A stretch of 64,000 nucleotides of DNA from an uncultured Acidobacteriota bacterium (GTDB lineage: Bacteria > Acidobacteriota > Thermoanaerobaculia > UBA5066 > Gp7-AA6): the NCBI GenBank assembly GCA_963797495.1, contig CAWCPN010000002.1, positions 3,240,520-3,304,519 of the forward strand, written 5' to 3'. Below the pieces are notes generated by a model. It was not told the origin of the DNA, did not search any database, and saw only the letters and a program-made list of their open reading frames with translations. Numbering within the stretch: the stretch's first letter is position 1; every line of letters starts with the position of its first letter. A program made the position numbers and the translations under genes. Of this stretch, positions 1,797 to 58,593 are shown one piece after another.

Positions 1797-4704
1797 ATGA
1801 TGACCACCAGAAGTCCCGGGTTCCGGAGGGCGTGGATTGCGGTCGCGGCCCTGGCGGCCGTGCTCGCGTTCGCGTCGCTCGCGGCCGCGCAGCAGCTCAC
1901 GGGCAACATCATCGGCTACGTCGCCGACGAGCAGGGCGGGCGCCTGCCCGGGGTCAGCGTCACGCTCACGGGCGTGGGCGCGGCGAAGACCCAGACGACG
2001 GACGCCCGCGGCGAGTATCGTTTCGTCAGCCTGGGCCCCGGCGTCTACACGCTCGAGTACGAGCTGCAGGGGTTCGGCAAGGTCACCAAGCCCGACGTCA
2101 AGGTCTCGGTCGGGCAGAACACGGAGACGAGCGGGATTCTCCGGATCTCGGGCATCGAGACCGACGTCGTCGTGAGGGGAGAGCAGCCGCTCCTCGACAC
2201 GCGCCAGGTCCAGACCGGCGCCGTCGTCGACCAGACGGAGCTCCAGGCGATCCCGACGGCGCGCGATCCGTGGGTCATTCTCTCGACGGTGCCGGGCGTG
2301 CAGCTCGACCGGGTCAACGTCGGCGGCAACGAGAGCGGCCAGCAGTCGACCTACGTCGGCAAGGGCGCGGACTCGAGCCAGAACACCTGGAACCTCGACG
2401 GCGTCACGATCACCGACATGGGCGCACTCGGGTCCTCCCCGACCTACTACGACTTCGAGTCGTTCGAGGAGATCCAGGCCACGACCGGGGGCAGCGACGT
2501 CACCGCCACTTCGCCGGGCGTACAGCTGAATCTCGTCACCAAGCGCGGCACCAACGACATCCACGGCTCCGCCCGGTACTACCTGGCCGACGGCGACCTC
2601 CAGTGGAACAACGTCACCGCCGAAGACCAGGCGCAGGGCGTGACCAACGGGGGCAACCGGATCAACGAGGTCCAGGACTACGGCGTCGAGATCGGCGGCC
2701 CGCTGGTGCGCGACCGGCTCTGGATCTGGGGCGCCGCCGGGCGCAACCAGATCAACCTCTTCAACGCCCAGGGCAATCCGGACGATACGAAACTCGTGGA
2801 CTACAGCGCCAAGGTCAATCTGCAGCTCTTCGACTCCACGGCGCTGGCCGGGAACTTCTCCAACGGCAACAAGCAGAAGTTCGGCCGCAACGTCAGCTTC
2901 TCCCGGCCGCCGCCCGCCTCCTGGAACCAGGACGGCCCGACGACCATCTGGCGGGGCGAGGTCTCGCAGGTCTTCTCGTCGTCCCTGTTCGCCTCGGCGT
3001 CCTACTCGTCGGTCTCGAGCGGTTTCTCGCTCACGCCGCAGGGCGGGATCGACGTGAACGACCTCTACATCAACACCGACGGCCAGTTCATCGGCAGCTA
3101 CCTCTACGCCGACACCGTCCGCCCCCAGCAGCAGGCCACGGCCAACGGCTCGTACTTCTTCTCGACCGGGGAGCTCGGCCACGAGCTGAAATTCGGCTTC
3201 AACTACCGCACGACCAACGTCGAGTCGAATTCCTTCTGGCCGGGCAACGGCAACGTCGGTGACCTCGCCGACTTCAACGCGCCCGCCGCCCTCCTGACGC
3301 GGCCGGCCGTCCTCGACTCGACGCTGGACTACTACAGCGGCTACCTGGCGGACACGCTGACGCTGGGGAACCTGACGATCAATGCCGGAGTCCGTTTCGA
3401 CTCGCAGAAGGGGCGCAACCTCGCGACCACGACGCCCGCCAATCCCGTGATCCCGGACCTCCTGCCGGCCGTCACCGCGCCCGGCGGAGCGACTCCGTTC
3501 ACCTGGGAGGACGTCGTGCCGCGCGTGGGGGCGACCTACGCCCTCGGCGCCGACCGGAAGACGCTGCTCCGGGCGAGTTACTCGCAGTATGCGGACCAGC
3601 TCGGTTCGGCGGCGATCGGCTTCATCAGTGCGGGGCAGATCGCCGGTCTCTACTATTACTGGAACGACGCCAACGGGGATTTCGTCGTGACGCGCGACGA
3701 GCTCGACCTCTCGAACCTCATCGCCAGCTATGGCGTCGACCCGGCGAACCCGGGCTCGGCCATTTCCGCCAACCGCATCGATCCCAACCTGAAGGCGGGC
3801 AAGACGACCGAGGTCATCGGCGGCATCGAGCGCGAGCTGTCCGACGACCTCGTGGTCGGCGTCAGCTACACCTACCGCAAATACACGGGCGCAGCTCTAT
3901 CCCCACCGGACGGGCCTCACCGAGGACGACTACGAGGTGGGGGGCGTCCTGACGGGAACGCTGTTCGACGGCTCGCCCTTCAGTCAGCCGTACTACCAGT
4001 TGAAGCCCGGCGTCGGGGTTCCGGCCGGCGTCACGCTGGAGAACCGGCCCGACTGGAACACCGTCTACAACGGCGTCGAGCTTTCGTTTCAGAAGCGGTT
4101 GACCGACAAATGGCTCGTCCGCGGCAGCGGCACCTACCAGACCTGGAACCAGAATGGCGGCGCCGGCTCCTGCTACGACCCGACGAGCGACCGCGGCGGC
4201 AACAACGAGCTCTGGCCCGGGACGGCGATCGCGATCCAGACCGGTTCGACCTGCGCGGGCAACGACATCGCGGCGTTTCCCGCCGGCTCGAACAGCGGCT
4301 CGCGCAACGAGGTCTTCCTCAACGCGCGGTGGCTCTTCAACGTCGGCGCCCTGTACCAGCTCCCGGCGGGCTTCGCCGTCGCGGGCAATTTCTTCGGCCG
4401 CGAGGGCTACCCGTACGTCAACTACTACCGGTTCGATCCGGGCGACGGCCTCGGGACCCGGGACAACGTCATCGGCAAGCTCTCCGATCATCGGTACGAC
4501 GACGTCTACGAGCTCGACCTGCGCCTCGAGAAGGTGATCGCGGTCAACCCTCTCCAGATCACCCTCGCGGCCGACGTCTTCAACGTCCTCAACCAGGGCA
4601 CCATCCTGCAGAGGAACGCCCGCGTGGACGTTTCCGCCTACGACAGCATCATCGAGATGCAGAGCCCGCGCGTCGTTCGCTTCGGCGCGCGAATCGGCTT
4701 CTAG
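1797..4704 (+). CDS. TonB-dependent outer-membrane receptor with N-terminal carboxypeptidase-regulatory-like domain, interrupted by one frameshift near 3890
   Basis: The signal peptide MMTTRSPGFRRAWIAVAALAAVLAFASLAAAQQ is followed by the CarboxypepD_reg motif YRFVSLGPGVYTL, a plug and a barrel. The barrel is continuous in frame 0 to about 3893 (..YTYRKYTG) and then continues in frame +1 (QLYPHRTGLTEDDYEVGG..). It ends with the canonical C-terminal aromatic motif ..RFGARIGF. A leader of about 400 nt precedes the ATG. Confidence 0.8.
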
Positions 4705-4956
4705 GCGGCCGCCTCCGGCACTCTCCGTGGCGGGCCTTCCCGGGGCCCGCCCTTTCTGTCTGCCCTGGGGCCGGGAGCGGCCGGGGCCGCCCTTCGTGGC
4801 AAGATACGGGCCCTGAGCGAGAAGAGCCCCGATTCGACCGCGCGCATCCCGCCCCCCCGCGGTTTCGACGTCGTCTGTCTCCCGATCATCGATTGGGGAT
4901 TTCGCGTCCAGCGGCCGCAGCAGCTCCTGAAGCCTTTCGCCGCGGCGGGGCACCGC

Positions 4957-7900
4957 GTGTTCTACGGGAAGACCTCTTTTCTCGGCCTCGACCGGGAGCC
5001 GGAGCTGGCGGAAGTCGCGGAGCGCGTTTTCGAGATCGGGCTGCCGGGCGAGCACGACTTCGACCTCTACGGGAGGACCGTCGGCGGCGAAACGCTCGAC
5101 CAGGCGTTCGCCGGGATCGCGGAGCTCGCCGAGCGGCACGGGATCCGGGACGCCGTGGTTCTCGTGCAGTACCCCTCGTGGGAGCCCCTGTCGCGGAGGC
5201 TGCGCGAGGAGCTCGGGTGGCGGGTCGTCTACGACTGCATGGACGACCACTCGGGGTTCGGAACGCACGGGCCAGACACGGCGGCCGACGAGGAGCGGCT
5301 CCTGCGCGGCGCCGACCTCGTCCTCGTGACCTCCTCGAAGCTCGAGGAGCGCGTGCGGCGGGTTCGCCCGGACGCCCTGCGCCTCCCGAATGCGGGCGAC
5401 GAGCGGCACTTCGCGCGGCTCCCGCCGCGGGCCGCGAGCCCGCTCGCGCGCCTGCCGCGCCCGGTCGTCGGGTACTACGGCGCCATCTCCGCCTGGTTCG
5501 ACGGCCCGGCGGTCCGGCAAGCCGCGGCGCGGTATCCGGACTGGTCCTTCGCGCTCATCGGCGACACGCGCGGCGCCGAGCTCGGGGATCTCGCCACGCG
5601 CCCGAACGTGCACCTGACGGGAGAAGTGGCCTACGGAGAGCTGCCGTCCTATCTCGCGGCCTTCGACGTCTGCACGATCCCGTTCCGGCGGACGCCGCTG
5701 ACCGAGGCCACCAATCCCGTCAAGATCTTCGAATACTTCGCCACGGGCAAGCCCGTGGTCGCCCGGCGCCTGCCGGAGCTCGAGCCGTACTCCGACGTTG
5801 TGGACCTGTACGAGACTTCCGCCGAGTTCGTCGCGGCGCTCGAGCGCGCGATCCGCGAGGGCGTGTCCCCGGGACCGGCGGCGGACCGGCGGCGCCGACT
5901 CGCGCGGGAGAACACCTGGCAGGCGCGATACGAGGCGCTGCGGGAGCGACTCGATGCAATCCCCTCGCCCCGACCCTCGCCCTCGGGGAGAGGGGGCACG
6001 GTTGCGCCGGCCTCGGACGCGGTGGACCGGCGCGTCAAGGAGATCCGGCGGCTCGCCGCCATCGTCCGGGAGCGGGAGGAGGGCATCCGGTTTCTGCAGG
6101 GAGAGCTCGCGGGCCTCGAGCGCCAGCTTCGCGGCAACATCGAGGACCTGGAAACCCAGCTCGCCCGGGCCGAGGAGACCTCGGAGGCCCGGGGCGCGCA
6201 TCTGTCCGCCGTTCTCGAGGAGCTCTCGCGCTGGGAGAACTCGCGCCTCGGGCAGCTTCGTAGGGCGGCCGAACGCGTCCGAGGGGTTCCCGGCTCGGCC
6301 CGGCGGGCGCTCGGGCGGGCGACCGCGCCCGGGACCCCGCTCTTCGAGATCGGCCGTCGGACCATTCCGCGCCCCTTCGCCCGGTACCTGCGGCGGACGT
6401 TCGCCCCCGTGGCGCAGCCCGAGAAGCTCGTGACGCTGCCGGCCGACGCGCCGCGCCGCCAGGACGCCGTGCCGGCCGTGCCGTCGGGCCATTACGACGT
6501 CGTCGTCTTCTCGATCATCGACTGGGACTTCCGCTTCCAGCGGCCGCAACAGCTGGCGACGCAGTTCGGCCGCCACGGCCACCGCGTCCTGTACCTGTCG
6601 ACCACGAAGTTTCTGGCGCCGGGCGGTCCGGCCTGGGACCTGGCCCGCAAGGCCGAGAACGTGGGGGAGTTGCGCATCCGGTCGCGCCGCGCCCTCGGTA
6701 TCTACAGCGGCCGTCTCGAGGAGGCCGACCTCGACACGCTCGTCGCCGCCTTCGAGTCCCTGGCACGCGACCTCGCCATGGGCGACACGGTCGGCGTCGT
6801 CCAGATTCCGTTCTGGGCCCCGCTCGCCGAACGGCTGCGCGAGCGGCTCGGCTGGCGCGTGGTGTACGACTGCATGGACGAGTGGACGAACTTTCCGGGC
6901 TTCGGCCAGAGCGTGCTGTCGCTCGAGGAGAATCTCGTCCGCCGCGCCGACGTGACCGTCGTTTCGGCCGACCGGCTGCTCGAGAAGTGGAAGGGTGTCG
7001 CCCCGCGGCTCACACTCGCGAAGAACGGCATCGACGCGGAGCACTACCGCCGCCTCTATGGTCCGAACGCGCTCCTGAAGGACGCCCGGCGGCCGATCAT
7101 CGGCTACTACGGGGCGCTGGCGTCCTGGGTGGACGTGCCGCTCCTGACGAAGATCGCCGACGCGCATCCGGACGCGACGATCGTGCTCGCGGGCGGCCAC
7201 TTCGACGTGGACCTCTCGCCGATCGTCTCGCGAAGCAACCTCCGGCTTCTCGGCCAGCGGCCCTACGAGGAGATGCCGAAGCTCCTCTGGAGCTTCGACG
7301 CCTGCGTGATCCCGTTTCTCGTCAACGACATCACCGAGGCCACCAACCCGGTCAAGTTCTACGAGTACCTCTACGGCGGCAAGCCCGTCGTCGCCCCGGC
7401 GTTGACGGAGCTTCTGCCGTACGCGGACATCTCCTACCTCGCCCGCGGCCACGACGAGTTCCTGGCCCAGCTTTCCCGGGCGCTGGCCGAGCCGACGGAC
7501 GACCCGCGCCGGGCGAAGCGCCGCCAGGTCGCCGAGGAGAACGACTGGGCGCACCGGTACGCGGCGATCGACGCCGGCCTCGCCGAAGCACACCCTCTCG
7601 TCTCGGTCGTCGTGGTGACCTACGGCGGCCTGGAGCTGACGAGGGCCTGCCTCGACTCGCTCGACCGCGAGACCTGGCCGCGCCTGGAGATCCTCGTCGT
7701 CGACAACGCCTCCAACGACGGCACCCCCGAATACCTGCGCGAGGCCGCGGCCCGGGAGCCCCGGATCCGGACGATCCTCAACGCCGAGAATCGCGGTTTC
7801 GCCGCCGCCAACAACCAGGGGATCGCCGCTTCGAGCGGCGAGGTCGTCGTGCTCTTGAACAACGACACGGTGGTTCCGCCGGGCCTCATGGGCATGCTCG

Positions 7901-8391
7901 TCCGGCACCTCGAGCGGGATCCTTCCATCGGCCTCCTGTGCCCCACGACCAACTTCTGCGGCAATGAGGCCCGGGTGGAACCGGATTACGAAGAGATCGG
8001 CGGGCTTCCGAACTTTGCCGCCCGCCGCGCCGAGGCGCATCGCGGCCGCGTCTTCGACATCGGTGTCGCGGCGATGTACTGCGTCGCCGCCCGGCGGGCC
8101 GTCCTCGACGACGTCGGGCCTCTCGACGAGGCGTACGGGATCGGCATGTTCGAGGACGACGACTTCGCCGTCCGGATGCGTGCGAAGGGCTACCGCGTCG
8201 CCTGCGCCGAGGACGCCTACGTCCATCACGTCGGCCAGGGGGCCTTCCGCAAGCTCTCGCCCGCGGCCTACGACGCGCTCTGGAAGAAGAACCAGGCCTA
8301 CTTCGAGAAGAAGTTCGGGGTCGAATGGAAGAAGCACATCCCGCGCGAGGGGGTGGCGGCGGTGGCGTCGAAGGTGGGGGCGGAGTCCTGA
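4957..8391 (+). CDS. tri-domain glycosyltransferase: GT4-like module, coiled coil, second GT4-like module, then a GT2 (DxD) module. The true start lies upstream of 4957 (about 4800-4950).
   Basis: An internal duplication is visible. FDVVCLPIIDWGFRVQRPQQL (encoded from about 4865) matches YDVVVFSIIDWDFRFQRPQQL (about 6490). Both modules carry an EX7E-like motif, EATNPVKIFEY and EATNPVKFYEY. Residues about 355-440 are heptad-like and Glu/Arg/Leu rich, which suggests a coiled coil. The C-terminal module has VSVVVVTYGG..ILVVDNASNDGT..NRGFAAANNQG, typical of GT2. The frame is open back to the TonB stop at 4704 with no ATG, GTG or TTG, so the start is non-canonical or lost to an indel. A 7-C run at 4849-4857 is a candidate site. 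Confidence 0.8.
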   Translation: MFYGKTSFLGLDREPELAEVAERVFEIGLPGEHDFDLYGRTVGGETLDQAFAGIAELAERHGIRDAVVLVQYPSWEPLSRRLREELGWRVVYDCMDDHSGFGTHGPDTAADEERLLRGADLVLVTSSKLEERVRRVRPDALRLPNAGDERHFARLPPRAASPLARLPRPVVGYYGAISAWFDGPAVRQAAARYPDWSFALIGDTRGAELGDLATRPNVHLTGEVAYGELPSYLAAFDVCTIPFRRTPLTEATNPVKIFEYFATGKPVVARRLPELEPYSDVVDLYETSAEFVAALERAIREGVSPGPAADRRRRLARENTWQARYEALRERLDAIPSPRPSPSGRGGTVAPASDAVDRRVKEIRRLAAIVREREEGIRFLQGELAGLERQLRGNIEDLETQLARAEETSEARGAHLSAVLEELSRWENSRLGQLRRAAERVRGVPGSARRALGRATAPGTPLFEIGRRTIPRPFARYLRRTFAPVAQPEKLVTLPADAPRRQDAVPAVPSGHYDVVVFSIIDWDFRFQRPQQLATQFGRHGHRVLYLSTTKFLAPGGPAWDLARKAENVGELRIRSRRALGIYSGRLEEADLDTLVAAFESLARDLAMGDTVGVVQIPFWAPLAERLRERLGWRVVYDCMDEWTNFPGFGQSVLSLEENLVRRADVTVVSADRLLEKWKGVAPRLTLAKNGIDAEHYRRLYGPNALLKDARRPIIGYYGALASWVDVPLLTKIADAHPDATIVLAGGHFDVDLSPIVSRSNLRLLGQRPYEEMPKLLWSFDACVIPFLVNDITEATNPVKFYEYLYGGKPVVAPALTELLPYADISYLARGHDEFLAQLSRALAEPTDDPRRAKRRQVAEENDWAHRYAAIDAGLAEAHPLVSVVVVTYGGLELTRACLDSLDRETWPRLEILVVDNASNDGTPEYLREAAAREPRIRTILNAENRGFAAANNQGIAASSGEVVVLLNNDTVVPPGLMGMLVRHLERDPSIGLLCPTTNFCGNEARVEPDYEEIGGLPNFAARRAEAHRGRVFDIGVAAMYCVAARRAVLDDVGPLDEAYGIGMFEDDDFAVRMRAKGYRVACAEDAYVHHVGQGAFRKLSPAAYDALWKKNQAYFEKKFGVEWKKHIPREGVAAVASKVGAES

Positions 8392-10761: not shown

Positions 10762-12282
10762 TCAAGGTGTCGCGTCTCTCGACGACCCCGGGGGCCCGGG
10801 AAGGGCCGACGACGGTCGCGATGCGCGGATCGCCGTCTGGACCAGGAAGGCCAGGCCCCCGAGCAGGCACAGCCCGGCGAAGATGCGAACCGGCCGGTCC
10901 TCCGGTCGAATCACTCGACCGCGCAGAATCAGAGGTTGAGGGACGGCGAAAGGTCGCACGTCCACGGGCTTCCAGTTTGGCACCTGGCCCGGGCTGCGGA
11001 AGTTCCAGTTGTGGCCCGCTGCGACGAACGCGGGCCCCCGGTCGTGGCCCGTTTCGCGGCGAATCCACGCTTCGGCTAGGCGCGCGTTGAACTCGACGTG
11101 ATTCCAGAGTGGATCACCCTGGTACGTTTCGAGGAAGACGTCCGTCGTGCCCATCGCCACCCCGCCCATCGCACCGTAGTAGAAGAGGACGCCGAGGATC
11201 GAAACCGCGAGCCCGGCGGCTGCCGAAAGCACCAGAGCGGGGCGTCCTGCGCGGCGGCCCGGCGCGTAGCTCGCGGCGAGGCTCAGCACGAGGGGAGCGA
11301 TGGCCGCGTGGAGATATCGCGGCCCCCACGTATCCTCGGCCCACAGATCGAGAAGGGAGAAGCCGCCAGCCAGTCCGGCCACGGAAAGGACGGCGAAAAC
11401 CGCGACTGGCCGGTTCCGCCGCCAGGCCGCGGGAAGGCGCACCAGCGCAACCACCGCGACCGGGGCGAAGACGAGCAGCCCCTTGTTCGGCGAACCGATG
11501 AATCCCACCAGATGCAGCAGGGGAGCCACGACGCTCCGGGCGCGGAAGCCGCGCAGGTACGCGCCGGTCCCGCCGAATCGCTCCCAGGATGCGATTCGCC
11601 AGGATGCGTTGAGCAGGTACGCGGCTGCCACCACTGCCAGGATCGCGAGCGCCCGTGCCGCGTGCGCCCGGACAGGGAGCGCCGCGCGGCCCCATCGCGC
11701 GGCGAAGCTCCAGATCAGATATCCGACGGCCGGCGCGAGCATCACGCCGTTCGACTTGGAGGCGACGGCGAAGACGCAGCAGATCGTGAAGAGCGCCACC
11801 GCCGGCCAGCGCGGTCGGCGGGAGTCGCCGAGCGCCAGGAAACCTGCGGCCAGAAGGGCCAGAGCTTGTGTGGTCTCGAGTCCGATGTACGCATAGGGCC
11901 AGAGCATCGTGGCGAACCCCGCCGTCAGCGAGAGCGCCAGGGCGAACCCTGCGCCATGCCCCAGGCGCGAGCACCAGACGAACAGCAGCGTCACGATACC
12001 GGCCGTCGCCGCGACGGGCTGGATGGACAAGGCACGGTCGCCCCAGGCGGGGCCGCCGGCGGCATCGCCGAGGAGCACGAACGGACACTCGAGCAGGACC
12101 GCCGCGGGTCCGTTGCGCCCCCAGTCGACTTCGCGCAGCGAGTGGCCGCTCCCGGCGGCCGCGCGGCAGGCGGCAACGTCGAAATGGACATAGCCCATCC
12201 CGACGGTTGAAAACGGGGACATCGAGAGATAGAGAAGAAATACGGCAAAGAACAACGCCAGAACCGGAGGGCGGCTAGACAT
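10762..12282 (-). CDS. polytopic membrane protein, possible GT-C-fold (PMT/ArnT-like) glycosyltransferase
   Basis: The ATG overlaps the upstream stop (ATGA) and GAAGGA lies just upstream. About 11 TM helices are followed by a periplasmic-type C-terminal domain (..LETYQGDPLWNHVEFN..). The family assignment is tentative. Confidence 0.6.
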   Translation of the reverse strand: MSSRPPVLALFFAVFLLYLSMSPFSTVGMGYVHFDVAACRAAAGSGHSLREVDWGRNGPAAVLLECPFVLLGDAAGGPAWGDRALSIQPVAATAGIVTLLFVWCSRLGHGAGFALALSLTAGFATMLWPYAYIGLETTQALALLAAGFLALGDSRRPRWPAVALFTICCVFAVASKSNGVMLAPAVGYLIWSFAARWGRAALPVRAHAARALAILAVVAAAYLLNASWRIASWERFGGTGAYLRGFRARSVVAPLLHLVGFIGSPNKGLLVFAPVAVVALVRLPAAWRRNRPVAVFAVLSVAGLAGGFSLLDLWAEDTWGPRYLHAAIAPLVLSLAASYAPGRRAGRPALVLSAAAGLAVSILGVLFYYGAMGGVAMGTTDVFLETYQGDPLWNHVEFNARLAEAWIRRETGHDRGPAFVAAGHNWNFRSPGQVPNWKPVDVRPFAVPQPLILRGRVIRPEDRPVRIFAGLCLLGGLAFLVQTAIRASRPSSALPGPPGSSRDATP

Positions 12283-13202
12283 CAGTCCTTCGGCCGCCGC
12301 CCGACGAGCAGCTGAAAATCGCTTGTCAGCAGTCCCGAGTCGACGAGGGCGTCCTCGGTCTCCCACACGGCTCGCAGGATCGCCTCGGCCTCCGGATCCC
12401 CCGGCGTGAAGTTGTGGGCGATGCCGTTGTAGAGCAGGTGCTGAATCGTCCCCCCGAGGAGCTTCCGGTGCGGGACCTCGAAGTACCGTTCGAAGAGCGG
12501 CCCGATCTCCGCCGACCGGATCGACTCGAAAGGGGACGCCGCCACGACCTCCTCGACGGTCGGCCGGCCCTCGTAGGGCTTCACCTCGCCCCGCCGAAGC
12601 GTCCGGAAGCGCGGCGGAATCAGGGCCATGAGGGCCTTCGTCAGCTCGATCTGCTGGTCGGTCCACTGGAACTGGGTCGGACCGACGAACTCTTCGAGGA
12701 TGAAGAGGCCGTGCGGCGTCATGGCGTCGAGGACCTGGGTCATGACGTGCTCGAGCTCGAGGAAGTGGTGGAAGCTGTGAGACGAGACGACCAGGTCGTA
12801 CCGGTTCGGTTCGAGACGGAGCCGGTTGCAGTCCTCGACGCGAAAGTGTCCGGGCGCGCCGGCCTTTTCCCGCGCCGCCTCCGCCTCCCGCACCCGGTCC
12901 GGGCTCGCGTCCATCCCCTCGACCTCGCGGGTCGAACCGATCCGGTGGAGCTGCAGGCTCAACGAACCCGAGCCGCAGCCCAGTTCCAGGCTGCGCTCCG
13001 CGGGCCCGCCGAGCTCCCGGGCGAGCCACCGCCGCCAGGGCAGGCCGTCGATCCGGCTCCGGGACTCGTAGTGGGTCTGTATCGACGGGTGGTCGATCCA
13101 GGCATGCATCTCGTGGGTGGCTTCGACAGCCAGATGATCGCCCCACTTGCGGCCCTCCGCCTGGAGACGCTCCTGATAATCGGAAGAGCTCGGATGCGTC
13201 AC
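12282..13202 (-). CDS. class I SAM-dependent methyltransferase
   Basis: GTG start overlapping the upstream TGA (GTGA), with GAGG upstream. Motif I is LELGCGSGSLSL. The remainder is a Methyltransf_11/12-like fold. Confidence 0.7.
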   Translation of the reverse strand: MTHPSSSDYQERLQAEGRKWGDHLAVEATHEMHAWIDHPSIQTHYESRSRIDGLPWRRWLARELGGPAERSLELGCGSGSLSLQLHRIGSTREVEGMDASPDRVREAEAAREKAGAPGHFRVEDCNRLRLEPNRYDLVVSSHSFHHFLELEHVMTQVLDAMTPHGLFILEEFVGPTQFQWTDQQIELTKALMALIPPRFRTLRRGEVKPYEGRPTVEEVVAASPFESIRSAEIGPLFERYFEVPHRKLLGGTIQHLLYNGIAHNFTPGDPEAEAILRAVWETEDALVDSGLLTSDFQLLVGRRPKD

Positions 13203-14566
13203 GGAACCTCGGACGGATGATACGGCCAGCCGAGCGCGCGCGCGGCGGCGAACATGACGAGGAGGATCGCGGCCGGGGCCAGCTGTGCGAGCAGCCGCGG
13301 GAGTGCCTGCGCGACGTGCAGCTCGAGGGGCCAGTTGGTCTGAAGGAAAATCGCCCACCAGGCGACCAGGGCCGCCGAAACCCCCGCGGCCAGGCATCGC
13401 TCGCGAACACAGCTCCGCCGCAGCAGGTACACGACCGCGACGGCGAGCGCGGGCCAGAGCAGGCCCCACCGTGAGACGTCGAGGGCCGACTCGACACAGA
13501 GGCGCCCGACGTGAAGGATCCGCCGCCGCGATTCGGCGAGGCTTCCCGGCGCGGTGATGCTCCGGAAGTTGGGATCGTCCACCGCGAGCCACGCGAGGTA
13601 GGCGAGTCTCGCGGCCACGAACGCGGCGACGACGGCGATGCCGCGTGCGTGCGCGACAAGCCGGCGGGCGGCCCGGTGCCGGTCGGCCAGAACCCAGGAC
13701 GCCGCGACGGCGAGGCACGCGATCGCCGCGAGGATCAACCCTTCGTTCTTCACGACGGTCAGTGCGCCGATCATCCAGGGGAGGGCGCCCGCGTCGCGGG
13801 GGCGCAGGGATGCCGCGACGGTCGCCGCGACGATCGCGGCCACGGGCATGTCGGCATAGCCGCCGGCCGCCGACCGCGTCGAGAGTCCGGGCACGACGGC
13901 GACGAGAAGGGTCGCCAGGAGCGCCGCCCGGCGGGAGAGACGCGAGGACGCGGCGGCATAAGTCGAGACGAGAAGCGCCGCGTAGAAGAGGAGGAAGATC
14001 GGCTTCAGGGCGTCGAAGTCGAAGCCGCGCCGCGACAGCGACAGGAGTCCCTCGAGCATCGGGACGAGAGGGGGATAGGTCAGGAGCCGCCGGTTGTAGA
14101 CGTCCCCGGCGTACCACTCGCGGCCCAGTCCGCCTTCGACGACGAGCCTCTGCGCCTTGCTCGCCCAGATCTGGAACCCGTCCCACCACAGGGGGTGGCG
14201 CAGATCGAGAACCGTGAAGGCGAGGACCGCGGCGGCGATCGCGGCGAGCAGGAGGATGGATCGCGGGTCCAGGGGGGCCGTCGCTCCATCGATTGCGTCA
14301 CGGTTCGGAAGCCGCGCGACGACGCGGCGGGCGGCCGCGAGGAGCAGGGCGCCGGCGAGGACGGCCGCGATCGCGACCAGCGCGTGCTTCGGCACGAGCA
14401 CGGACAGGGGGAAGAGCAGCGCCGCGCAGGCGGCGCCCCCGCCGACGAAGCGGACCGTCCATCCGAAGGGGCCGCGGGTGCCGGGAGGCATCCACAGGCC
14501 GCCGAGCGACGCGAGGGCGAGGGCGAGCAAACCGGTCCAGAGCAGTTCGTGCACCGGGACGCTCAC
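13199..14566 (-). CDS. polytopic integral membrane protein (hypothetical; candidate GT-C-like or polymerase)
   Basis: GTG start overlapping the upstream stop (GTGA). More than 10 hydrophobic helices, with loops that include a ..HPLWWDGFQIW.. motif. Confidence 0.55.
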   Translation of the reverse strand: MSVPVHELLWTGLLALALASLGGLWMPPGTRGPFGWTVRFVGGGAACAALLFPLSVLVPKHALVAIAAVLAGALLLAAARRVVARLPNRDAIDGATAPLDPRSILLLAAIAAAVLAFTVLDLRHPLWWDGFQIWASKAQRLVVEGGLGREWYAGDVYNRRLLTYPPLVPMLEGLLSLSRRGFDFDALKPIFLLFYAALLVSTYAAASSRLSRRAALLATLLVAVVPGLSTRSAAGGYADMPVAAIVAATVAASLRPRDAGALPWMIGALTVVKNEGLILAAIACLAVAASWVLADRHRAARRLVAHARGIAVVAAFVAARLAYLAWLAVDDPNFRSITAPGSLAESRRRILHVGRLCVESALDVSRWGLLWPALAVAVVYLLRRSCVRERCLAAGVSAALVAWWAIFLQTNWPLELHVAQALPRLLAQLAPAAILLVMFAAARALGWPYHPSEVP

Positions 14567-14979
14567 TCTCCGGGGATTCCGATGACGACCGGTTTCGGCC
14601 CGTCGATCCGGCGCGGGGAGCGAAGGCGGAGCTCCGGCGGAGGCGAACCGATCGTCAGCACGAGGTCCGCATCCCGCGTCTCCGGTTCGGCGACCGGCAG
14701 AAACCGCACGGAGACGGGGTTCCGGGGGTAGAGCGCCCGTTGCCAGAGACGCGCCTCCCACTCGTCGGAACGGGAGGCCACCAGGAGAATCCGAACGCCC
14801 GGCGAAACCTCCGCACGAACGCGTCGCGCCTGTTCCTCGAACCCCGGCGAAAAGACCCCGGGCCCCGGCCCCCGCCGCACGGCTTCGAGGTCCCGGGCCA
14901 TCGACGCGAAGCCGGACGCGAGCGACGCGCCGACGAAGATCAGGGTCGCGGTGAAGGCGAACGCCCGCGAACCGCTCAT
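14563..14979 (-). CDS. small exported/anchored protein (first gene of the 5-gene glycan operon)
   Basis: The N-terminal hydrophobic segment FAFTATLIFVGASLA is followed by a soluble domain of about 110 aa. The stop overlaps the next start. Confidence 0.4.
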   Translation of the reverse strand: MSGSRAFAFTATLIFVGASLASGFASMARDLEAVRRGPGPGVFSPGFEEQARRVRAEVSPGVRILLVASRSDEWEARLWQRALYPRNPVSVRFLPVAEPETRDADLVLTIGSPPPELRLRSPRRIDGPKPVVIGIPGE

Positions 14980-15022: not shown

Positions 15023-16216
15023 CTACTCTCCCGGCGCGGGAACGGCGCGGAAGACGAACGGGGGAGCCGGCTTGTCGTTCTGGCCCCGCGCGCGGATGAG
15101 GTCCGGCGCGACGCCGGCGGCCTCGGCCGCCTCGAGGAAGAAGGCGGTGATCCGTCGGGCGTGCTCGTCGAGGCGCTCGCCCTCGATGTTGGAGAGCATG
15201 ACGGTCACCAGGCGCGCGTGCGGCACGACGACGATGGCGCTGCGGCCGCCCACGCCCCGGCCGCCGTGCCAGACGTAACGGCGGCCGCGCGCGTCGCGTC
15301 TCGACGTACCAGCCGAGGCCGTATCCGGTCGAGGCGCCGTTGCGCGTCCTCTGCGGCGTGAACATCGCCTCCAGGGCGTCGTTGCGGAGGATCTCGCCCC
15401 GCAGCAGGGCCTCGCCGAAGCGGACGAGGTCCTCGGTCGGTCGAGACGTAGCCGCCGCCGCCCCAGAGGCAGCTCGTGTCCACCGGTCGCGCGGCGCGCA
15501 GGAGCCCGAGGAAACCGCGCTCGTAGAAGAGGCGTGCGGCCGGGCAGAAACCGCCGGGGATCGTCGGCCATGGTGGAGCTCATGCCGGCGGGGCCGGCGA
15601 CCGTCTCGTTCAGGAGCTCGGAGAACCGCTTTCCGGTGGCCGCCTCCATGGCCGCCGAGAGGAGCAGGTAGCCCTTGCGCGACATCGAATGAGCGAGTCC
15701 CGCGGGGCGGATGAAGAGCCGGCCCGAGAGCGTCCGCGCCGCGTCGCGGGCCCCGGCGCAGGGGGCGGCTGCGACCTCGTCGTCCGCGAAGTCGCTCGTC
15801 CCGGCCAGGTGCGCCGCGAGGGCGCGCGCCGTGACGGGGACGCGCGTCTCGGGAAGGTCGGGCAGGTACTTCTGCAGGGGGGCGTCGAGGTCGAATCGCC
15901 CGTCCTGGGCCAGCCGTTCCATGACGGTCGCCGTCAGCGGCATCGCCACCTCGTAGATCCGGAACTGGGTCGAGCGCGAGACCTTGCGCTGTCGGTCGAC
16001 GTCCGCGAAGCCGAACGCCGTCGACCAGACGATGTCGTCGCCGACGGCGACGGCGACCGCCGTTCCGGGATAGAGCTGGAGGACCTGGTCGAGCATCGCC
16101 CTCGACTCGTCGATCGCGCGCGCGTAGGGCGAGCTCGGGCCCGGCAGCCCGGGCGCGCCGATGCCGCGAGAAGCGGCGAGCAGCGTGGGAGCGGCGAGGC
16201 GGCGCAGCGTGCTCAT
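15023..16216 (-). pseudogene. beta-lactamase / serine hydrolase family protein, disrupted by multiple frameshifts
   Basis: Recognisable segments are spread over three frames: the N-terminus (..AIDESRAMLDQVLQLYPGTAVAVAVGDDIVWSTAFGFADVDRQ..), ..WGGGGYVS.. and ..MFTPQRTRNGASTGYGLGWYVE.., and the C-terminus ..GGRSAIVVVPHARLVTVMLSNIE... The ATG overlaps the stop of the upstream kinase (ATGA). Confidence 0.55.
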
Positions 16217-17425
16217 GCGGTTGGGGCGAGCCTCGGCCCGGCGCTCGGCGCCGTGCGACGGGAGGCGACGTCGACCGGGCGCGCGGCGGCGGTCGCCGCC
16301 ATGACCAGGGGGAACGTCAGGGAGACCTCGCAGCCGCGGCCGGGCGCGCCGCGGAAGTCGAAGTCGTGGCGGTTCGGGTACAGGAGCTCGAGCCGATCGC
16401 GCGTGTTGCGCAGGCCGACGCCGCCCTCGGTCGGGCGCGGGGCGACGCCGCTCGGACCCGGTCCGTCGTCGCGCACGAGCAGGTGCAGGCGGTCGCCGGC
16501 CTCGCGCCGCGCGTGGACCTCGATCGGCCCGGAGCCGGGTCGGGCGCCGATGCCGTGCTTGATCGCGTTCTCGACGAGCGGCTGAAGGATCAGGTTCGGG
16601 ACGAGCGCGTCGGCGATGCCGGGCTCGACGTCGAGCCGCACGGTGAGCCGGTCCTGGAAGCGCGTCTGCTGGATCTCGAGGTAAACCTTCAGCAGCTCGA
16701 GCTCCTTGCGGAGGGGAATCAGGTCGCTGCCCTCGTTCTGCAGCGAGAGCCGGAGCAGGTCCGCCAGGCGCACGACGGTGCGCGCGGCCGCCTCGCGGTC
16801 GCGGAAGACGAGCGGCAGGATGCTGTTGAGGGTGTTGAAGAGGAAGTGCGGGTGCAGCTGCATCTTCAGCGCCTCGAGCCGCGCCGAAAGCAGCCGCGTC
16901 TTGACCTGCGAGGCCCGCAGCTCGCGCTCGCGCGTCAGCCGCCCGTACGACAGCGCCCAGGTCGCCCCGACGATCGCGGCGTAGGTCACGAAAGTGGTCG
17001 GGAACAGGACCCGAAACATCTGCGGAAGGGCCGCGAACTGCGTCGCGACGACCAGCGGAAAGCCCATGAGCAGCGGATACGCGACCTGGTAGGCGGCGCA
17101 ATGGGCGATGGGGAACACGATTCCGCCGGCCGCGAGGCCGGCGATCGGGAGGGCCCAGTTCGCGCGGGTGGGCGGACAGCGCCGGGCGAGCCAGACGACG
17201 ACCGGCGTGAACACCGCCCAGATGGTCGAGGCGAGCAGGCACTGCGCCAGCGGCTTCCCAGAGTCCGAACTCCAGCCGCTGGAGCTGGAACGGGTCGCTG
17301 AAGTACCGGTCGGCGGCGCGGAAGAGACCGACGAGGGTCCAGGCGGCGAGCACCCAGCCGGCCGCCCGCCAGCGTTCGCCGCGCGGGGCCCGGGGCAGTT
17401 CCCGGAACGGGAAGGCGGCGCTCAC
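16213..17425 (-). CDS. LytS/YehU-family sensor histidine kinase (paralog 1), with one frameshift in the membrane domain near 17250
   Basis: Signature LHPHFLFNTLNSI followed by HATPase_c (..ENAIKHGI..GVGLRNTRDRLELLYP..). The N-terminal TM region reads in a second frame (VSAAFPF..FQLQRLEFGLWE) upstream of the shift. The GTG overlaps the stop of paralog 2 (GTGA). Confidence 0.7.
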
Positions 17426-18657
17426 GCGAGCGCTCCCTCCGGGCGCGCAGCCACGATCGGCTCCAGCGGCAGCGTGATCGTCACGTCGTGCCCCTTCTCG
17501 AGCCGATCGGAGATGGCGATCCGGTGGCGGTCGGGATAGAGCAGCTCCAGCCGCAGCTTCGTCTTGCGCACGAACGAGTCGTCGATGGCGGTCGCCGCCG
17601 GAACCTCCCCGGGATCGAGCGCCGACTCGTGCACCTCCAGGTGCAGGCCGGCGTCGTCCGGCCAGGCGCGGATCTCGATCGCGGCGCGGCCGGGCCGGAC
17701 CGAGATGCCGTTGGCGATCGCGCTCTCGGCCAGCGGCAGCAGGACCAGATTGGGCACCGCCGAATCCAGCGCCTCCGGGGCGATCGAAAACCGGACCTCG
17801 AGGCGGTCCTGGAGGCGTGTCTGCTCGATCTGGAGATAGAGGCGGATGTACTCGAGCTCCGTCTTCAGCGGGACGAGGCCGGTGGCGTCGTTGTGCAGGG
17901 CGAGGCGGAGAATGTCGCCGAGCTGGACCACGGTGCGCGCGGCGGCGCGCGGCTCGGTCCGGATGAGCGGCAGGATCGTGGCCAGCGTGTTGAACAGGAA
18001 CGGCGGATGGAGGCGCAGCTTCAGGGCCTCGAGCTGCGTCTGGACGAGCTCGCGCTCGAGCTCGGAGGCCTGGAGCTCCTTTTCGCGAAAGGTGCGGTAG
18101 TCGTCGATGCCCCACGTCACGCCGACGATTCCGATGTAGGTCGCCAGGCGCGCCGCGCCGCCGAAGGCGAGGGTCGCCGTGAACATGGCCATGAATCCCC
18201 CGCCGAATTCGGGGGGATCGACGGCGTACCAGAAGACGTTGGTCGCCAGCAGGTGGAAGAGCGCGGCGACCGCGCCCCCGGCGAGCAGGACCGGAACCGT
18301 CGCCAGGCGCCGGCCGCGCCGCGGGCGGAACCTCCGGGCCAGGCGCATGATCGGCGGCGTCAGCGCGGCCCAGAGGTAGGCCGTGACGAGGCTGGCGGCC
18401 AGCGATTCGCCGACCGGCAGCGCCAGCCGCGGCTGCAGGGAAGGGCCGCGGAGGTAGCGCTGCGCCGCGATGAAGAGGCCGACGACCGTCCAGACGGCGA
18501 GGACCTCCAGGGCCCGCCGCCGCTGCGGCCGGTCGGTCGCCGGGGGAGGCGACCGGACGTCGGGGGCGGCCGGAACGAAGACGGCCGTCGCGGGGCGCCC
18601 GGAGGCGTCGGAGGCCTCCCGGACGATCGCGATCCGTGCGCGCGCGGCCGCCCTCAT
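17422..18657 (-). CDS. LytS/YehU-family sensor histidine kinase (paralog 2), intact
   Basis: A 411-aa product. Four to five N-terminal TM helices are followed by LHPPFLFNTLATI (His_kinase) and HATPase_c. Confidence 0.8.
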   Translation of the reverse strand: MRAAARARIAIVREASDASGRPATAVFVPAAPDVRSPPPATDRPQRRRALEVLAVWTVVGLFIAAQRYLRGPSLQPRLALPVGESLAASLVTAYLWAALTPPIMRLARRFRPRRGRRLATVPVLLAGGAVAALFHLLATNVFWYAVDPPEFGGGFMAMFTATLAFGGAARLATYIGIVGVTWGIDDYRTFREKELQASELERELVQTQLEALKLRLHPPFLFNTLATILPLIRTEPRAAARTVVQLGDILRLALHNDATGLVPLKTELEYIRLYLQIEQTRLQDRLEVRFSIAPEALDSAVPNLVLLPLAESAIANGISVRPGRAAIEIRAWPDDAGLHLEVHESALDPGEVPAATAIDDSFVRKTKLRLELLYPDRHRIAISDRLEKGHDVTITLPLEPIVAARPEGALA

Positions 18658-18729
18658 CTCCGAGCCGCGGGCGTTCGCCTTCGGATCCGGGGCGCTCGCA
18701 TTGCCATCCCGCTCGGCCGTCGGCAGCCG

Positions 18730-19497
18730 CTAGACCGCCAGCCGGCGGAACTCCTTCAACCGCTCGCGGTACGTGCTCGAAAGGGTCAGCTTCGTGCCGT
18801 CCCTCAAAGTCACCGCGTAGTCGCCGTTGAACCAGGGGTGCATTTCCTTGATCCGCTCGATGTTGACGATCGTCGAGCGGTGGATGCGGAAGAACTTCCT
18901 GGGATCGAGCCGTGACTCGATACCCGAGGTGGTCTCGTGGAAAACGTAGACCTCCTTGCCGACGTGCAGCCGCACGTTGTTGCGGGACGACTCGATCCAG
19001 TCGACGTCGGCCACGCGGAGGAAGACGCTCCGCTCGTCCTTCTTGATCAGGAGCCACTCCGGGTAGGCGCGCTCGCGCTGGATGTCTTCGAGCAGGGCGT
19101 GGAGCGTGGCCTTCAGCTGGCGCGACGAGCTCCGGTCGATCTCTCCCCGGGCGCGCTCGACGGCGTCGTGCAGACGCTCGCCGGAAAAGGGCTTCATGAG
19201 GTAGTCGACGGCATGCGCCTCGAAGGCCTTGAGGGCGTAGCGGTCGAAGGCGGTCACGAAGATGACGGCGGGCAGGTCCTGGGGATCGCAGCTCGCCAGG
19301 ACGCCGAAGCCGTCGAGTCCGGGCATCTGCACGTCGAGGAGCACGAGCTGCGGCTTCATCTCGGTGATGGCCTTGACGGCCTCGAAGCCGTCGCCGCACT
19401 CGCCGATGATCTCGATGTCCGGCTCGTCCTGAAGGCCGTTGCGCACCCACTCGCGCGCCAGCGGCTCGTCGTCGACGATCAGGGTTCGGATTTTCAT
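18730..19497 (-). CDS. LytTR-family response regulator (REC + LytTR DNA-binding domain)
   Basis: MKIRTLIVDDEPLARE..LLDVQMPGLDG.. forms the receiver domain and the C-terminal domain is LytTR. A perfect GAGGAGG sits 6 nt upstream of the ATG. Confidence 0.9.
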   Translation of the reverse strand: MKIRTLIVDDEPLAREWVRNGLQDEPDIEIIGECGDGFEAVKAITEMKPQLVLLDVQMPGLDGFGVLASCDPQDLPAVIFVTAFDRYALKAFEAHAVDYLMKPFSGERLHDAVERARGEIDRSSSRQLKATLHALLEDIQRERAYPEWLLIKKDERSVFLRVADVDWIESSRNNVRLHVGKEVYVFHETTSGIESRLDPRKFFRIHRSTIVNIERIKEMHPWFNGDYAVTLRDGTKLTLSSTYRERLKEFRRLAV

Positions 19498-19758
19498 GCC
19501 CACCCTCCTCTTTTCTGCAACGCCGCAAGGGCTGATACGTAAAGGAACGAAAGGAGTTACATGGATATGCCGGGTCATTTCGACCCAAGTTTCCGGACGT
19601 CGGGTTCAAAAAGCGGAACATGATGCCGAACGGGTCGCGCGAGGGGCCAACTGCTGTGACGAAAGGGCGCAATCGAAGGGCGAACCGCTCGCGCGTCCGG
19701 ACCGTGCAGGGCCGAATCGCGTTTTTCGGATGGAGTGTTCGATGATCCGGACGTCGAA

Positions 19759-20079
19759 GTGAGCGGACTGCGCTTCCTCGCCGTCGCATTGCTGGCCCTC
19801 CCGATCGGGTTCGGGCCCGATTCCGGCGGCCGAAAGGCCGATCCGCCGCCCGCGACCCCGGAGGCGAACCCGGATGCCTTTGCCGCGACCGTGCGGCCGG
19901 TGCTCGCCGCCCGGTGCGCCCCCTGCCACGAACCCGGCGGAAAGATGTACGCGAAACTCCCGTTCGACCGCCCCGAAACGATCGCCGCGCACTCCGCGGG
20001 CGTCCTCCGGCGGCTGAAGGGCGCCGACCGCGAAGCCGTCGAGAAGTGGCTCGCCAGTCTGCCGCCGTCTCCGCGTTGA
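19759..20079 (+). CDS. small exported protein with PSCyt1-like (planctomycete cytochrome c) CxxCH motif
   Basis: The predicted signal peptide is MSGLRFLAVALLALPIGFG. The motif ..VRPVLAARCAPCHEPGGK..LPFDRPETI fits the PSCyt1 pattern (ILxxRCxxCHG). The stop overlaps the TTG of the next gene (TTGA). Confidence 0.45.
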   Translation: MSGLRFLAVALLALPIGFGPDSGGRKADPPPATPEANPDAFAATVRPVLAARCAPCHEPGGKMYAKLPFDRPETIAAHSAGVLRRLKGADREAVEKWLASLPPSPR

Positions 20080-21791
20080 CCCCCTTCGCGTTCGTCCCGT
20101 TGCTCGCCGCGTTCGCCGTCCCGGCGGACGCGCCTTTGGCGCCGCCGAACTTCCTGGACATCAATCCGTCGTGGTCGCCGGACGGGACACGCCTCGTGTA
20201 CCAGAGCGCCCGCCACGGAAATGCGCAGCTCTACGTCATCGGCGCCGACGGGACGGGCGAGCGCCGCCTGACGGAGAGCCTCGGCGACGACACGCACCCT
20301 TCGTGGTCGCCCGACGGCCGGTGGATCCTCTTCGACTCCAACCGCGACGGCGTCTGGAATCTCTACCTCGTCCGACCCGACGGCACCGGCCTGACGCGCC
20401 TGACGTACCGGGGCGAGGCGCCGGGGGAAGCGTTCGCGCGCCACCCGTCGTGGTCGCCGGACGGAGCGCGGATCGCGTTCGACTCCGATCGCGACGGCGA
20501 CGAGGAGATCTACGTCTGCGACGCCGACGGCGGGAACGCCCGGCGGCTGACGAGAAGCCCCGGCCCCGACGGCCACGCGGCCTGGAGCCCGGACGGGAAC
20601 GAGATCCTCTTCACCGGGACCCGAGGCGGCAACCAGGACGTCTGGATCGTCGATGCGCCGGGAGGGATTCCCCGGCGGCTGACGAGCGACACCGCCGCCG
20701 ACGGGGCCGCCCGAATGTCGCCCGACGGCCGAAAAATCGCTTTCTTCTCGGAGCGGGACGGACACGCCGAGATCTACCTCATGAACCGCGACGGCTCGAA
20801 CCCGCACAACCTCACGCGCGATGCTTCGACCGAGTACGAGCTGGCCTGGTCGCCCGACGGCGGCCGACTCGCCTACTACTCCGACGCGCCGGGCGGCCGG
20901 TTCGAGGTGTTCGTGATGGACGCCGACGGCGGCAACCGGCGGCAGGTGACCGACGCCGCATACGACAGCGCCTTCCCCCAGTGGTCGCCGGATGGGACGC
21001 GGGTGGTCTTCGGCTCCACGCGCGACGGCGACTGGGAGATCTACACGATGTCGGCCGACGGCTCGGATGCCCGGCGCCTCACGTCGAGCCCCGGCCGGGA
21101 CGCGCATCCGCAGTTCACGCCGGACGGGCTGCGGATCCTGTTTCAATCGCCGCGCGACCGGGACGCCGACGGGGAGGTCGACATCTACGTCGCCAACGCC
21201 GACGGCTCGAGCCCGAAGCGGCTGATCGGCGGCCCGGGCTTCGACGGCGTCCCGGTGCCGTCGCGCGACGGCCGGTGGCTGGCGTTCCAGCGGGGAACCC
21301 CCTCCGGCGAGAAGTTCCACTGGGAGCTGTTCGTGGCGGACATGGACGGCCGGAAGGTGCGGCCGCTGACCTCCAACGCCTGGTCGAGCCAGGTGCCGAG
21401 CTGGAGCCCCGACGGGCGGACCCTCGTCTTCCACGCGGACCCGGAGGTCCGCAACCAGCTGTTCCTGCTCGACGTGGCCACCGGGGCCGTGAAGGCCCTG
21501 CTCGCGAGCGACGCGACGGACGAAACACCGTCGTTCTCGCCCGACGGGAATTCGGTCGCGTTCGTCTCGACGCGCGACGGCAGCCGCGACCTCTACCGGC
21601 TCGACGTCGGTTCTTCGGCCGTGACGCGCCTGACCCGCGGAATGGACGTCTGGTCCCAGGCGGGATGGTCGCCGGACGGGAAGCGGCTGATCTTTTCCGC
21701 GAAGGCCGGAGGAGTCCACGACGTCTACGTCGTCGGGGTGGACGGGTCCGGATTGAAGCGGCTGACGAAGGGGGTCGAGGGGCTGCGATAA
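20076..21791 (+). CDS. PD40/TolB-like beta-propeller repeat protein (about 11 repeats)
   Basis: Repeated ..PSWSPDG.R..F.S.RDG..E(I/L)Y.. units run throughout. The short N-terminal hydrophobic segment is TPFAFVPLLAAFAVPADA. Confidence 0.8.
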   Translation: MTPFAFVPLLAAFAVPADAPLAPPNFLDINPSWSPDGTRLVYQSARHGNAQLYVIGADGTGERRLTESLGDDTHPSWSPDGRWILFDSNRDGVWNLYLVRPDGTGLTRLTYRGEAPGEAFARHPSWSPDGARIAFDSDRDGDEEIYVCDADGGNARRLTRSPGPDGHAAWSPDGNEILFTGTRGGNQDVWIVDAPGGIPRRLTSDTAADGAARMSPDGRKIAFFSERDGHAEIYLMNRDGSNPHNLTRDASTEYELAWSPDGGRLAYYSDAPGGRFEVFVMDADGGNRRQVTDAAYDSAFPQWSPDGTRVVFGSTRDGDWEIYTMSADGSDARRLTSSPGRDAHPQFTPDGLRILFQSPRDRDADGEVDIYVANADGSSPKRLIGGPGFDGVPVPSRDGRWLAFQRGTPSGEKFHWELFVADMDGRKVRPLTSNAWSSQVPSWSPDGRTLVFHADPEVRNQLFLLDVATGAVKALLASDATDETPSFSPDGNSVAFVSTRDGSRDLYRLDVGSSAVTRLTRGMDVWSQAGWSPDGKRLIFSAKAGGVHDVYVVGVDGSGLKRLTKGVEGLR

Positions 21792-42369: not shown

Positions 42370-44624
<2,255 letters not shown>

Positions 44625-44695
44625 GGCGGCCGCGAGGGCCGCCCCGACGCATGGGCGGAGCGTGTCCCCGCTCTCCTCTCCGTTGCGCCGGTCCG

Positions 44696-57106: not shown

Positions 57107-57150
57107 GGAGAGCGAGACTCTATACTCCGCCCGGCGGAAAGGCCGACAGG

Positions 57151-58522: not shown

Positions 58523-58593
58523 GTGGGTCCGTCCCGGGATCCGCGGCGCAAATCCGCGCAGGCCTCGTCGCTTCAGTGACGGGGACGAGGCGC

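Follow-up and report, generated by a model that had tools for sequence, protein, structure and literature searches.

A conserved LytTR operon of Thermoanaerobaculia with a predicted kinase-pseudokinase pair and a predicted pseudo-beta-lactamase

The window analysed here, a stretch of 64,000 nucleotides (nt) with a G+C content of about 70% on contig CAWCPN010000002.1 of an uncultured Acidobacteriota bacterium, contains a four-gene signalling operon in which, judging from sequence, two of the four products are conserved pseudoenzymes. The genes occupy positions 15023-19497, all on the minus strand, in the order RR-HK2-HK1-BL (Table 1), for a response regulator (RR), a pseudo-histidine kinase (HK2), a histidine kinase with all the motifs of its type (HK1) and an exported protein of the beta-lactamase fold (BL). 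The gene order is conserved far beyond chance, and we are dealing with a lineage-specific signalling operon. An earlier note on this DNA had read it as one regulator with two LytS-like kinases and a serine hydrolase; the anatomy that it described holds up well, while our data argue for a different view of what HK2 and BL can do.

The four genes and their conservation

The three last genes are tightly packed. The TGA of HK2 overlaps the GTG of HK1 in a GTGA at 17425-17422, and the TGA of HK1 overlaps the ATG of BL in an ATGA at 16216-16213, both read directly; RR and HK2 are separated by 72 nt. RR is a REC + LytTR protein whose receiver residues are intact (acidic pocket D9/D10, phospho-acceptor D55, T82 and K103), and whose best NCBIfam matches, BtsR and LytR, both fall well short of the equivalog cut-offs. 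The two kinase-like proteins, HK1 and HK2, are paralogous (identity of about 41-43%), each with 3-4 hydrophobic or transmembrane (TM) segments joined by short loops in the first 160 residues or so, according to a crude hydropathy scan. No further sensor domain is found in either of them by Pfam, a periplasmic domain is absent, and 5TMR_LYT (PF07694) and GAF give no Pfam match at E <= 0.01; the architecture resembles the shorter AlgZ type. The PF00144 match of BL has an E-value of 5.6e-36 in the raw sequence and of 3.5e-49 once its reading frame is repaired. The earlier note had proposed this gene order, the GTGA and ATGA coupling, the paralogy of the two kinase-like proteins and their membrane-only sensor regions, and all of these are borne out.

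A profile of the BL family, run against a single genome for each species, picked out 28 loci of Thermoanaerobaculia (uncultured Acidobacteria) in which BL is at least 69% identical. The four genes are contiguous in 28/28 of these species-level loci, with RR identities of 79-97%; the 4-nt stop/start overlap between HK2 and HK1 is present in 23 of them and that between HK1 and BL in 20. On three contigs where HK2 is 84, 83 and 72% identical, all genes are intact and follow the same order, with a regulator, a kinase-like protein matching His_kinase only, one matching His_kinase and HATPase_c, and a Beta-lactamase protein in sequence. BL is thus no long-dead gene among the relatives, and the operon is conserved. 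HK2 homologs number in the hundreds, and those with a named source are all labelled Thermoanaerobaculia or Acidobacteriota. Median pairwise ratios of nonsynonymous to synonymous substitution (dN/dS), which are rough because the G+C content at third codon positions is extreme, are 0.13 for RR, 0.32 for HK2, 0.27 for HK1 and 0.28 for BL, and by these estimates purifying selection clearly acts on all four genes.

Kinases of the LytS type carry their phospho-accepting histidine between a proline and a phenylalanine, and the H382Q variant of BtsS is not phosphorylated (PMC10653868). All the LytS/AlgZ-type motifs are present in HK1 and its orthologs, namely the H-box LHPHF, the N-box ENAIKHG, the G1 box DDGPG and the G2 box GGVGLRN. 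HK2 has an N-terminal TM bundle, a PF06580 region that resembles a dimerization and histidine phosphotransfer domain and reads HPPF for HPHF, and a degenerate catalytic and ATP-binding region, with ESAIANG and no DxGxG. A motif census of its 120 best homologs finds the histidine of the Pro-His-Phe motif replaced in every one (by P in 104, S in 9, Q in 2 and A in 2, among the residues listed), the N-box asparagine turned into S in 92 and G in 27 and kept in a single protein, and the G1 box (DxGxG) lost in 120/120; none of the 120 has a HATPase_c match in Pfam. The residues surrounding the degenerate motifs, such as LKLRLHPPFLFNTL, are nearly invariant, which argues for a maintained non-catalytic protein and not for a decaying gene. 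An equivalent pair, in which a protein with HPAF and a degenerate N-box precedes a canonical kinase, is found at a distant locus (L036), and the split between kinase and pseudokinase is therefore older than the clade. On these motifs HK2 is predicted to be a conserved pseudokinase and HK1 the only competent kinase of the pair.

The closest solved relatives of BL are LACTB (7v21, E 5.7e-51), alkaline D-peptidase and the R61 DD-peptidase. In the alignment with LACTB, RIASISKSLT faces RIYEVAMPLT of BL, so that the nucleophile Ser has become Glu and the general-base Lys has become Met, and YSTFGY faces VSRKGY. The change of motif 1 from SxxK to ExxM is shared by every close homolog (>=63% identity), as YE[VA]AM or a near variant, and in motif 2 the Tyr is replaced by Met, Val or another residue, followed by SR, throughout the operon-linked clade; motif 3 is kept, with W-H-G-G-R-G conserved. 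Most homologs at <=43% identity retain the Ser and Lys of SxxK together with Y-[ST]-[ST], and a few lineages have lost them independently. With the catalytic Ser, Lys and Tyr replaced, BL should not be a hydrolase of serine mechanism. A signal-peptide-like N-terminus, with a positive n-region, a hydrophobic stretch and an A-x-A-like site, is present in 73 of the 81 full-length BL homologs, no lipobox pattern was found in the N-termini of full-length homologs, and most proteins of the family have exactly two Cys. BL is thus predicted to be an exported, conserved and catalytically dead binding module: the fold assigned by the earlier note stands (PF00144, LACTB) and the enzyme does not.

Pseudo-lactamases also occur outside this operon. 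A sister clade of 10 loci (L032-L041) encodes one that is 47-51% identical, with R or Q in place of the Ser and E in place of the Lys, and there the gene is not fused to a kinase operon and is always divergent to TonB-dependent receptor genes (e.g. L036, 3464-11125). An RR-pseudoHK-HK set lies a few kilobases upstream in three of these loci; in the remaining ones it may lie beyond the 10-kb flank.

Frame breaks in HK1 and BL

HK1 and BL carry frameshifts in this assembly, as the earlier note had reported, and the evidence indicates that these are not biological. Searches with intact orthologs (tblastn) find residues 1-58 of HK1 at 17425-17252 and the rest of the protein, from residue 59 on, in a different frame at 17250-16216, with one spurious inserted base near 17251-17253. 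BL contains six spurious bases, near 16170 (+1), 16148-16147 (+2), 15532, 15440 and 15298 (+1 each), and the +1/+2 insertions scramble its signal peptide. In a DNA alignment against three orthologous loci, every indel whose length is not a multiple of three is an insertion in the window sequence. With the insertions removed, HK1 has 403 amino acids (aa) and BL 395 aa, and both align end to end with their orthologs; the window's BL has a database entry on a 4.1-Mb contig (P0136, 397 aa), which is identical to the uncorrected translation.

The problem extends to the whole window, where a frame-aware composition hidden Markov model detects more than 30 coding-frame changes without a stop codon, concentrated at 35.9-46.2 kb; public annotation has probably mis-called many of the genes in that region, among them an M1-peptidase-like and a HAD-like gene. 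Other frame-switch spots lie at about 3887, 34118, 53476-54472 and 57139-59262. At least five reading-frame segments make up the gene for the NAD-dependent DNA ligase, ligA, with positions 7-67, 81-185 and 187-253 of the adenylation-domain profile, and then the OB fold, the zinc finger and the HhH, in successive frames. A TonB-dependent receptor gene and a tilS-like gene switch frame without stops in the same manner. Since ligA is essential and yet broken, the assembly must carry insertion errors.

It could still be argued that HK1 and BL are genuine recent pseudogenes and that the system is decaying in this strain, as seven extra bases are crowded into 2.3 kb and none is found in RR or HK2. 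We find this very improbable, because ligA, the receptor gene and the tilS-like gene are broken alike, all events are insertions, and apart from the inserted bases HK1 and BL are 85-91% identical to intact orthologs, free of stops and deletions. The related contigs belong to metagenome-assembled genomes (MAGs) named "MFD...bin", with Flye-style contig names; one of them also shows fragmented genes, and fragmentation and garbled "fusion" proteins recur in sister assemblies from the same long-read project. On this evidence we conclude that the frameshifts of HK1 and BL are assembly errors and not pseudogenes. Two HK-BL "fusion" proteins, P0197 and P0211, were considered as Rosetta-stone support for an interaction and rejected: they contain long, garbled, out-of-frame stretches rich in Arg and Pro, and are by all appearances frameshift artefacts of the 4-nt overlap, no true fusions. 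Insertion errors are frequent in this long-read MAG, and through them genes appear in databases as pseudogenes or fusion proteins that do not exist.

Upstream region, candidate regulon and surroundings

Upstream of RR, 330 nt aligned from 27 species show sharp conserved islands in a poorly conserved background. Half-sites of the form [CT]GTCC lie at about -188 and -167, sometimes at -146, and at -105 from the ATG, with spacings of 21, 21 and 62 bp, and a related GTTCCGG is found at about -125. These phased repeats, of the kind that the earlier note had thought worth looking for, have the architecture of a LytTR operator, with direct repeats of about 9 bp that are about 12 bp apart and about 21 bp from centre to centre, and they form a putative binding site. 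The core consensus of AlgR is CCGTTCGTC (PMC4064291), and several species have this sequence, exactly or with one mismatch, as their -167 site. Counted across the window, the paired CGTCC repeat occurs at chance level (5 observed versus 4.45 expected per 64 kb); the case for the putative operator rests on positional conservation across species and not on counts in one window.

Between the repeats and the start of RR, some 40-60 nt upstream of the latter, is a TAAC-N16-CGTAT block that is unique in the window (0.01 expected). We take it to resemble promoters of extracytoplasmic function (ECF) sigma factors (AAC / CGT), and consider it a candidate only; if the candidate is right, it would add a second, envelope-stress-type layer of control to the operon. 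Other readings of this leader were tried and set aside. The highly conserved 100 nt have no Rfam match, and RNAalifold gives about 0 kcal/mol and no covarying pairs, so that a structured RNA or riboswitch was rejected; the same holds for a sigma-54 promoter, whose spacing does not fit. A sigma-70 scan of 14.5-20.1 kb found no promoter-like site, and a terminator scan of the same interval gave a single terminator-like site (inside HK2), fewer than expected by chance.

We searched all fetched loci for CGTCC-N15-17-CGTCC. In the window and in 18 other loci, a syntenic DUF1579 gene has the exact repeat 65-105 nt before its start, and conserved TTGcc and TAnnGT boxes (-35/-10-like) come after the repeat. 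The DUF1579 gene keeps its synteny with the operon in about 24 loci and is, on these grounds, a likely member of the regulon; no function is on record for the family. In the sister clade, 10/10 loci have one to three CGTCC repeats in the divergent region that separates the TonB-dependent receptor genes from the pseudo-lactamase gene. The repeat is also found upstream of TonB-dependent receptor genes in L016 and L023, and a tentative site in the window precedes the receptor gene that starts at ATG 1798.

That receptor gene, of the CarboxypepD_reg / TonB-dependent type, is frameshifted near 3887. Its upstream region contains TGGCAC-N5-TTGCT at about 1732-1747 (+), a textbook sigma-54 element, and TTCGTCCC lies at about 1583-1590, upstream of both this element and the CGTCC pair.

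On the other side of the operon, BL is followed after 43 nt by three co-oriented genes, and no terminator was found in this gap, so that the trio at 12282-14979 may extend the operon. The association (a 138-156-aa protein, a protein of about 12 TM segments and an S-adenosylmethionine (SAM) methyltransferase) is frequent among related loci and not universal. The 138-aa and 12-TM proteins have no significant match in Pfam or NCBIfam.

Table 1. Positions of the operon, its putative regulatory sites and other features in the window
Feature	Position	Strand	Remarks
RR, REC + LytTR	19497-18730	-	255 aa; Response_reg E 2e-23, LytTR E 1.5e-25 (Pfam PF00072, PF04397)
HK2, predicted conserved pseudo-histidine kinase	18657-17422	-	411 aa; sole Pfam match PF06580 His_kinase
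HK1, LytS/AlgZ-type kinase	17425-16213	-	PF06580 and HATPase_c (PF02518)
BL, predicted exported pseudo-beta-lactamase, LACTB / DD-peptidase-like fold	16216-15023	-	PF00144
Putative LytTR operator, phased [CT]GTCC half-sites	19595-19686	-	27-species footprint
Site A	19682-19678	-	Distal half-site, degenerate CGCCC
Site B	19666-19658	-	CCTTTCGTC; putative half-site
GTTCCG element	19619-19614	-	Within the upstream array
Site C	19599-19595	-	CGTCC; putative half-site
TAAC-N16-CGTAT block, candidate ECF-sigma-type promoter	19559-19535	-	Invariant in 27 species
Perfect CGTCC-N16-CGTCC, candidate second operator	22434-22409	-	65-90 nt upstream of the DUF1579-like gene
DUF1579-family protein, secreted, candidate regulon member	22344-21805	-	179 aa; homologs carry PF07617
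CGTCC-N16-CGTCC, tentative regulon site	1663-1688	+	About 110-135 nt upstream of TonB-dependent receptor gene, ATG 1798
138-aa protein	14979-14563	-	N-terminal hydrophobic segment; downstream, co-oriented
~12-TM protein	14566-13199	-	Faint STT3/GT-C match (E about 0.05-0.09); Pfam and hydropathy
SAM methyltransferase	13202-12282	-	Downstream, co-oriented
ligA, NAD-dependent DNA ligase	42619-44703	+	Split over at least five reading-frame segments

Divergent from the operon, an open reading frame of 114 aa (19735-20079, +) begins like a signal peptide and contains a haem-binding motif of the CxxCH form (CAPCH); its cytochrome c matches in Pfam are only faint, and it adjoins the regulator gene in most related loci. 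Next to it comes, in some loci, a PD40/TolB-like beta-propeller protein of 625 aa (19914-21791 in the window). Envelope-glycan genes are abundant nearby, at 3889-8385 (+) and 10762-14566 (-), and include a very large multi-domain glycosyltransferase (GT1 + GT2-like repeats), methyltransferases, and two paralogous proteins of about 12 TM segments with a faint STT3/GT-C resemblance.

A model of the system, its rivals and known relatives

We propose a joint model in which HK1 phosphorylates RR, HK2 modulates HK1 and BL is their periplasmic ligand-binding partner, and we think that this is probably, if far from certainly, how the operon works. HK1 would autophosphorylate and pass the phosphate to D55 of RR. 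HK2 would pair with HK1 and serve, without catalysis of its own, as a subunit that senses or modulates, by analogy with FasB/FasC or RetS/GacS; what speaks for the pairing is the paralogy, the conserved adjacency and the 4-nt overlap of the two genes. The exported pseudo-lactamase would bind a ligand in the periplasm and signal through the short periplasmic loops of HK1 and HK2, supplying a binding surface that both kinase-like proteins lack. Phosphorylated RR would then bind CGTCC repeats 21 bp apart and act on its own operon, on the DUF1579 gene and on TonB-dependent receptor genes, as well as on the pseudo-lactamase gene in the sister clade. As for the ligand, the DD-peptidase/LACTB ancestry of BL and the link to TonB suggest an imported molecule that is peptide-like or derived from the cell wall, and this part is weaker than the rest of the model. 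The envelope or peptidoglycan-fragment sensing put forward by the earlier note is speculation, and the hints given by the regulon fit an imported periplasmic ligand at least as well. In its strongest form, the model would make BL the actual receptor, which captures a TonB-imported ligand (plausibly a D-amino-acid peptide or a cell-wall-derived fragment) and docks on an obligate heteromer of HK1 and pseudo-HK2; we regard this as possible and rather doubtful. A literature search found no description of such a receptor design, built from two pseudoenzymes, in two-component systems.

Several observations weigh against the joint model. The histidine that lies two residues upstream of the replaced one (LHPPF) is kept in 114/120 HK2 homologs and could conceivably be an unusual phospho-site. 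The distal half-site of the putative operator is degenerate in the window, and the AlgR 9-mer is not significantly enriched window-wide (59 observed versus 49±7 expected). The roughness of the dN/dS values counts on the same side, as does the fact that the organisms are uncultured MAGs and the model is drawn from their sequences. Lastly, the sister-clade pseudo-lactamase has a repeat-bearing promoter of its own, which fits a regulated output as well as it fits a co-sensor.

This last point leads to the main rival, in which the pseudo-lactamase is an output of the system, a regulated periplasmic protein that binds or sequesters, for example, peptides or cell-wall fragments imported by the co-regulated TonB-dependent receptors, and whose position at the end of the operon serves co-expression. 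Not only does the sister-clade gene share its CGTCC repeats with TonB-dependent receptor genes, but the repeats upstream of the operon suggest autoregulation, which would make BL a target in the clade of the window too. On the other hand, the overlap of HK1 and BL, seen in 20 of the 28 loci, points to BL and the kinase being made in stoichiometric amounts, and both kinase-like proteins lack a periplasmic domain. The roles of target and feedback sensor are also compatible, CpxP being both. We therefore hold an exclusive output role to be a serious though unlikely alternative. Much harder to sustain is the literal form of the first reading, two functional LytS-type kinases that feed different signals to one regulator, plus an active serine hydrolase. 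It is true that HK1 and HK2 are paralogs that both match PF06580 and that BL matches PF00144 strongly, but HK2 lacks the phospho-His, the G1 box and the N-box (whose Asn is kept in one homolog in 120), and BL lacks its Ser, Lys and Tyr across the clade. Of the two LytS-like kinases announced by the earlier note only HK1 would be competent, and we give the literal reading hardly any credence.

If the joint model is true, the operon offers a natural, sequence-defined case of pseudoenzymes recruited as sensors or modulators of a histidine kinase. Two-component systems are usually read as one kinase and one regulator; here, a lineage of soil Acidobacteria keeps two "dead" proteins under selection and in a translationally coupled form. 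The public labels of these genes, "histidine kinase" and "serine hydrolase", are functionally misleading. The predicted operator and the small predicted regulon make the system testable with synthetic genes in a heterologous host.

Known systems provide partial likenesses. AlgZ(FimS)/AlgR of Pseudomonas aeruginosa also combines a small PF06580 kinase, with a membrane bundle and no periplasmic domain, and a REC + LytTR regulator; the -167 half-site agrees with the AlgR consensus, exactly or with one mismatch, in several species, and the neighbourhood here is rich in envelope-glycan genes. AlgZR differs in having a single kinase, with no pseudokinase paralog and no partner of the beta-lactamase fold, and the repeats of our operon are 21-bp phased arrays; the likeness is one of features and not of a sequence comparison with AlgZ/AlgR. 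With BtsS/BtsR and LytS/LytR the operon shares the Pro-His-Phe of the HK1 H-box, the type of regulator and the best NCBIfam matches of RR, but scores are far below the cut-offs, 5TMR_LYT and GAF are missing, and a pseudokinase and a pseudo-lactamase are added.

In FasBCA of Streptococcus pyogenes, FasB and FasC heterodimerise, one of the partners is a proposed pseudokinase, and the target site of the regulator is described as ComE-like (PMC12675982). As in our operon, a single regulator is encoded together with a tandem pair of kinase-like membrane proteins. FasC, however, still has its phospho-accepting His, and it is only its kinase domain that has become dispensable, whereas HK2 has lost both the His and the ATP-binding residues; the gene order is different, no periplasmic pseudoenzyme is present, and the Fas kinases are presumably AgrC/ComD-like rather than of the PF06580 family.

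BL, for its part, has the fold, the overall sequence and the H-G-G motif of LACTB, S12 DD-peptidases and class C beta-lactamases, and is set apart from them by the loss of nucleophile, general base and motif-2 Tyr across the operon-linked clade. In BlaR1/MecR1, LuxP-LuxQ and TorT-TorS, a module of penicillin-binding fold or a periplasmic binding module acts as receptor for a membrane transducer. The sensor domain of BlaR1 is fused to its transducer and acylated via an active Ser, whereas the module described here is a separate protein that should not be open to acylation and that would be coupled to the kinase. Our literature search returned no description of this module, none of a pseudo-lactamase that partners a two-component system, and nothing relevant on signalling in Thermoanaerobaculia. 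Each ingredient has a precedent, in AlgZR-type systems, FasBC-type pairs and BlaR1-type sensors, and it is therefore the combination that is new and not the category.

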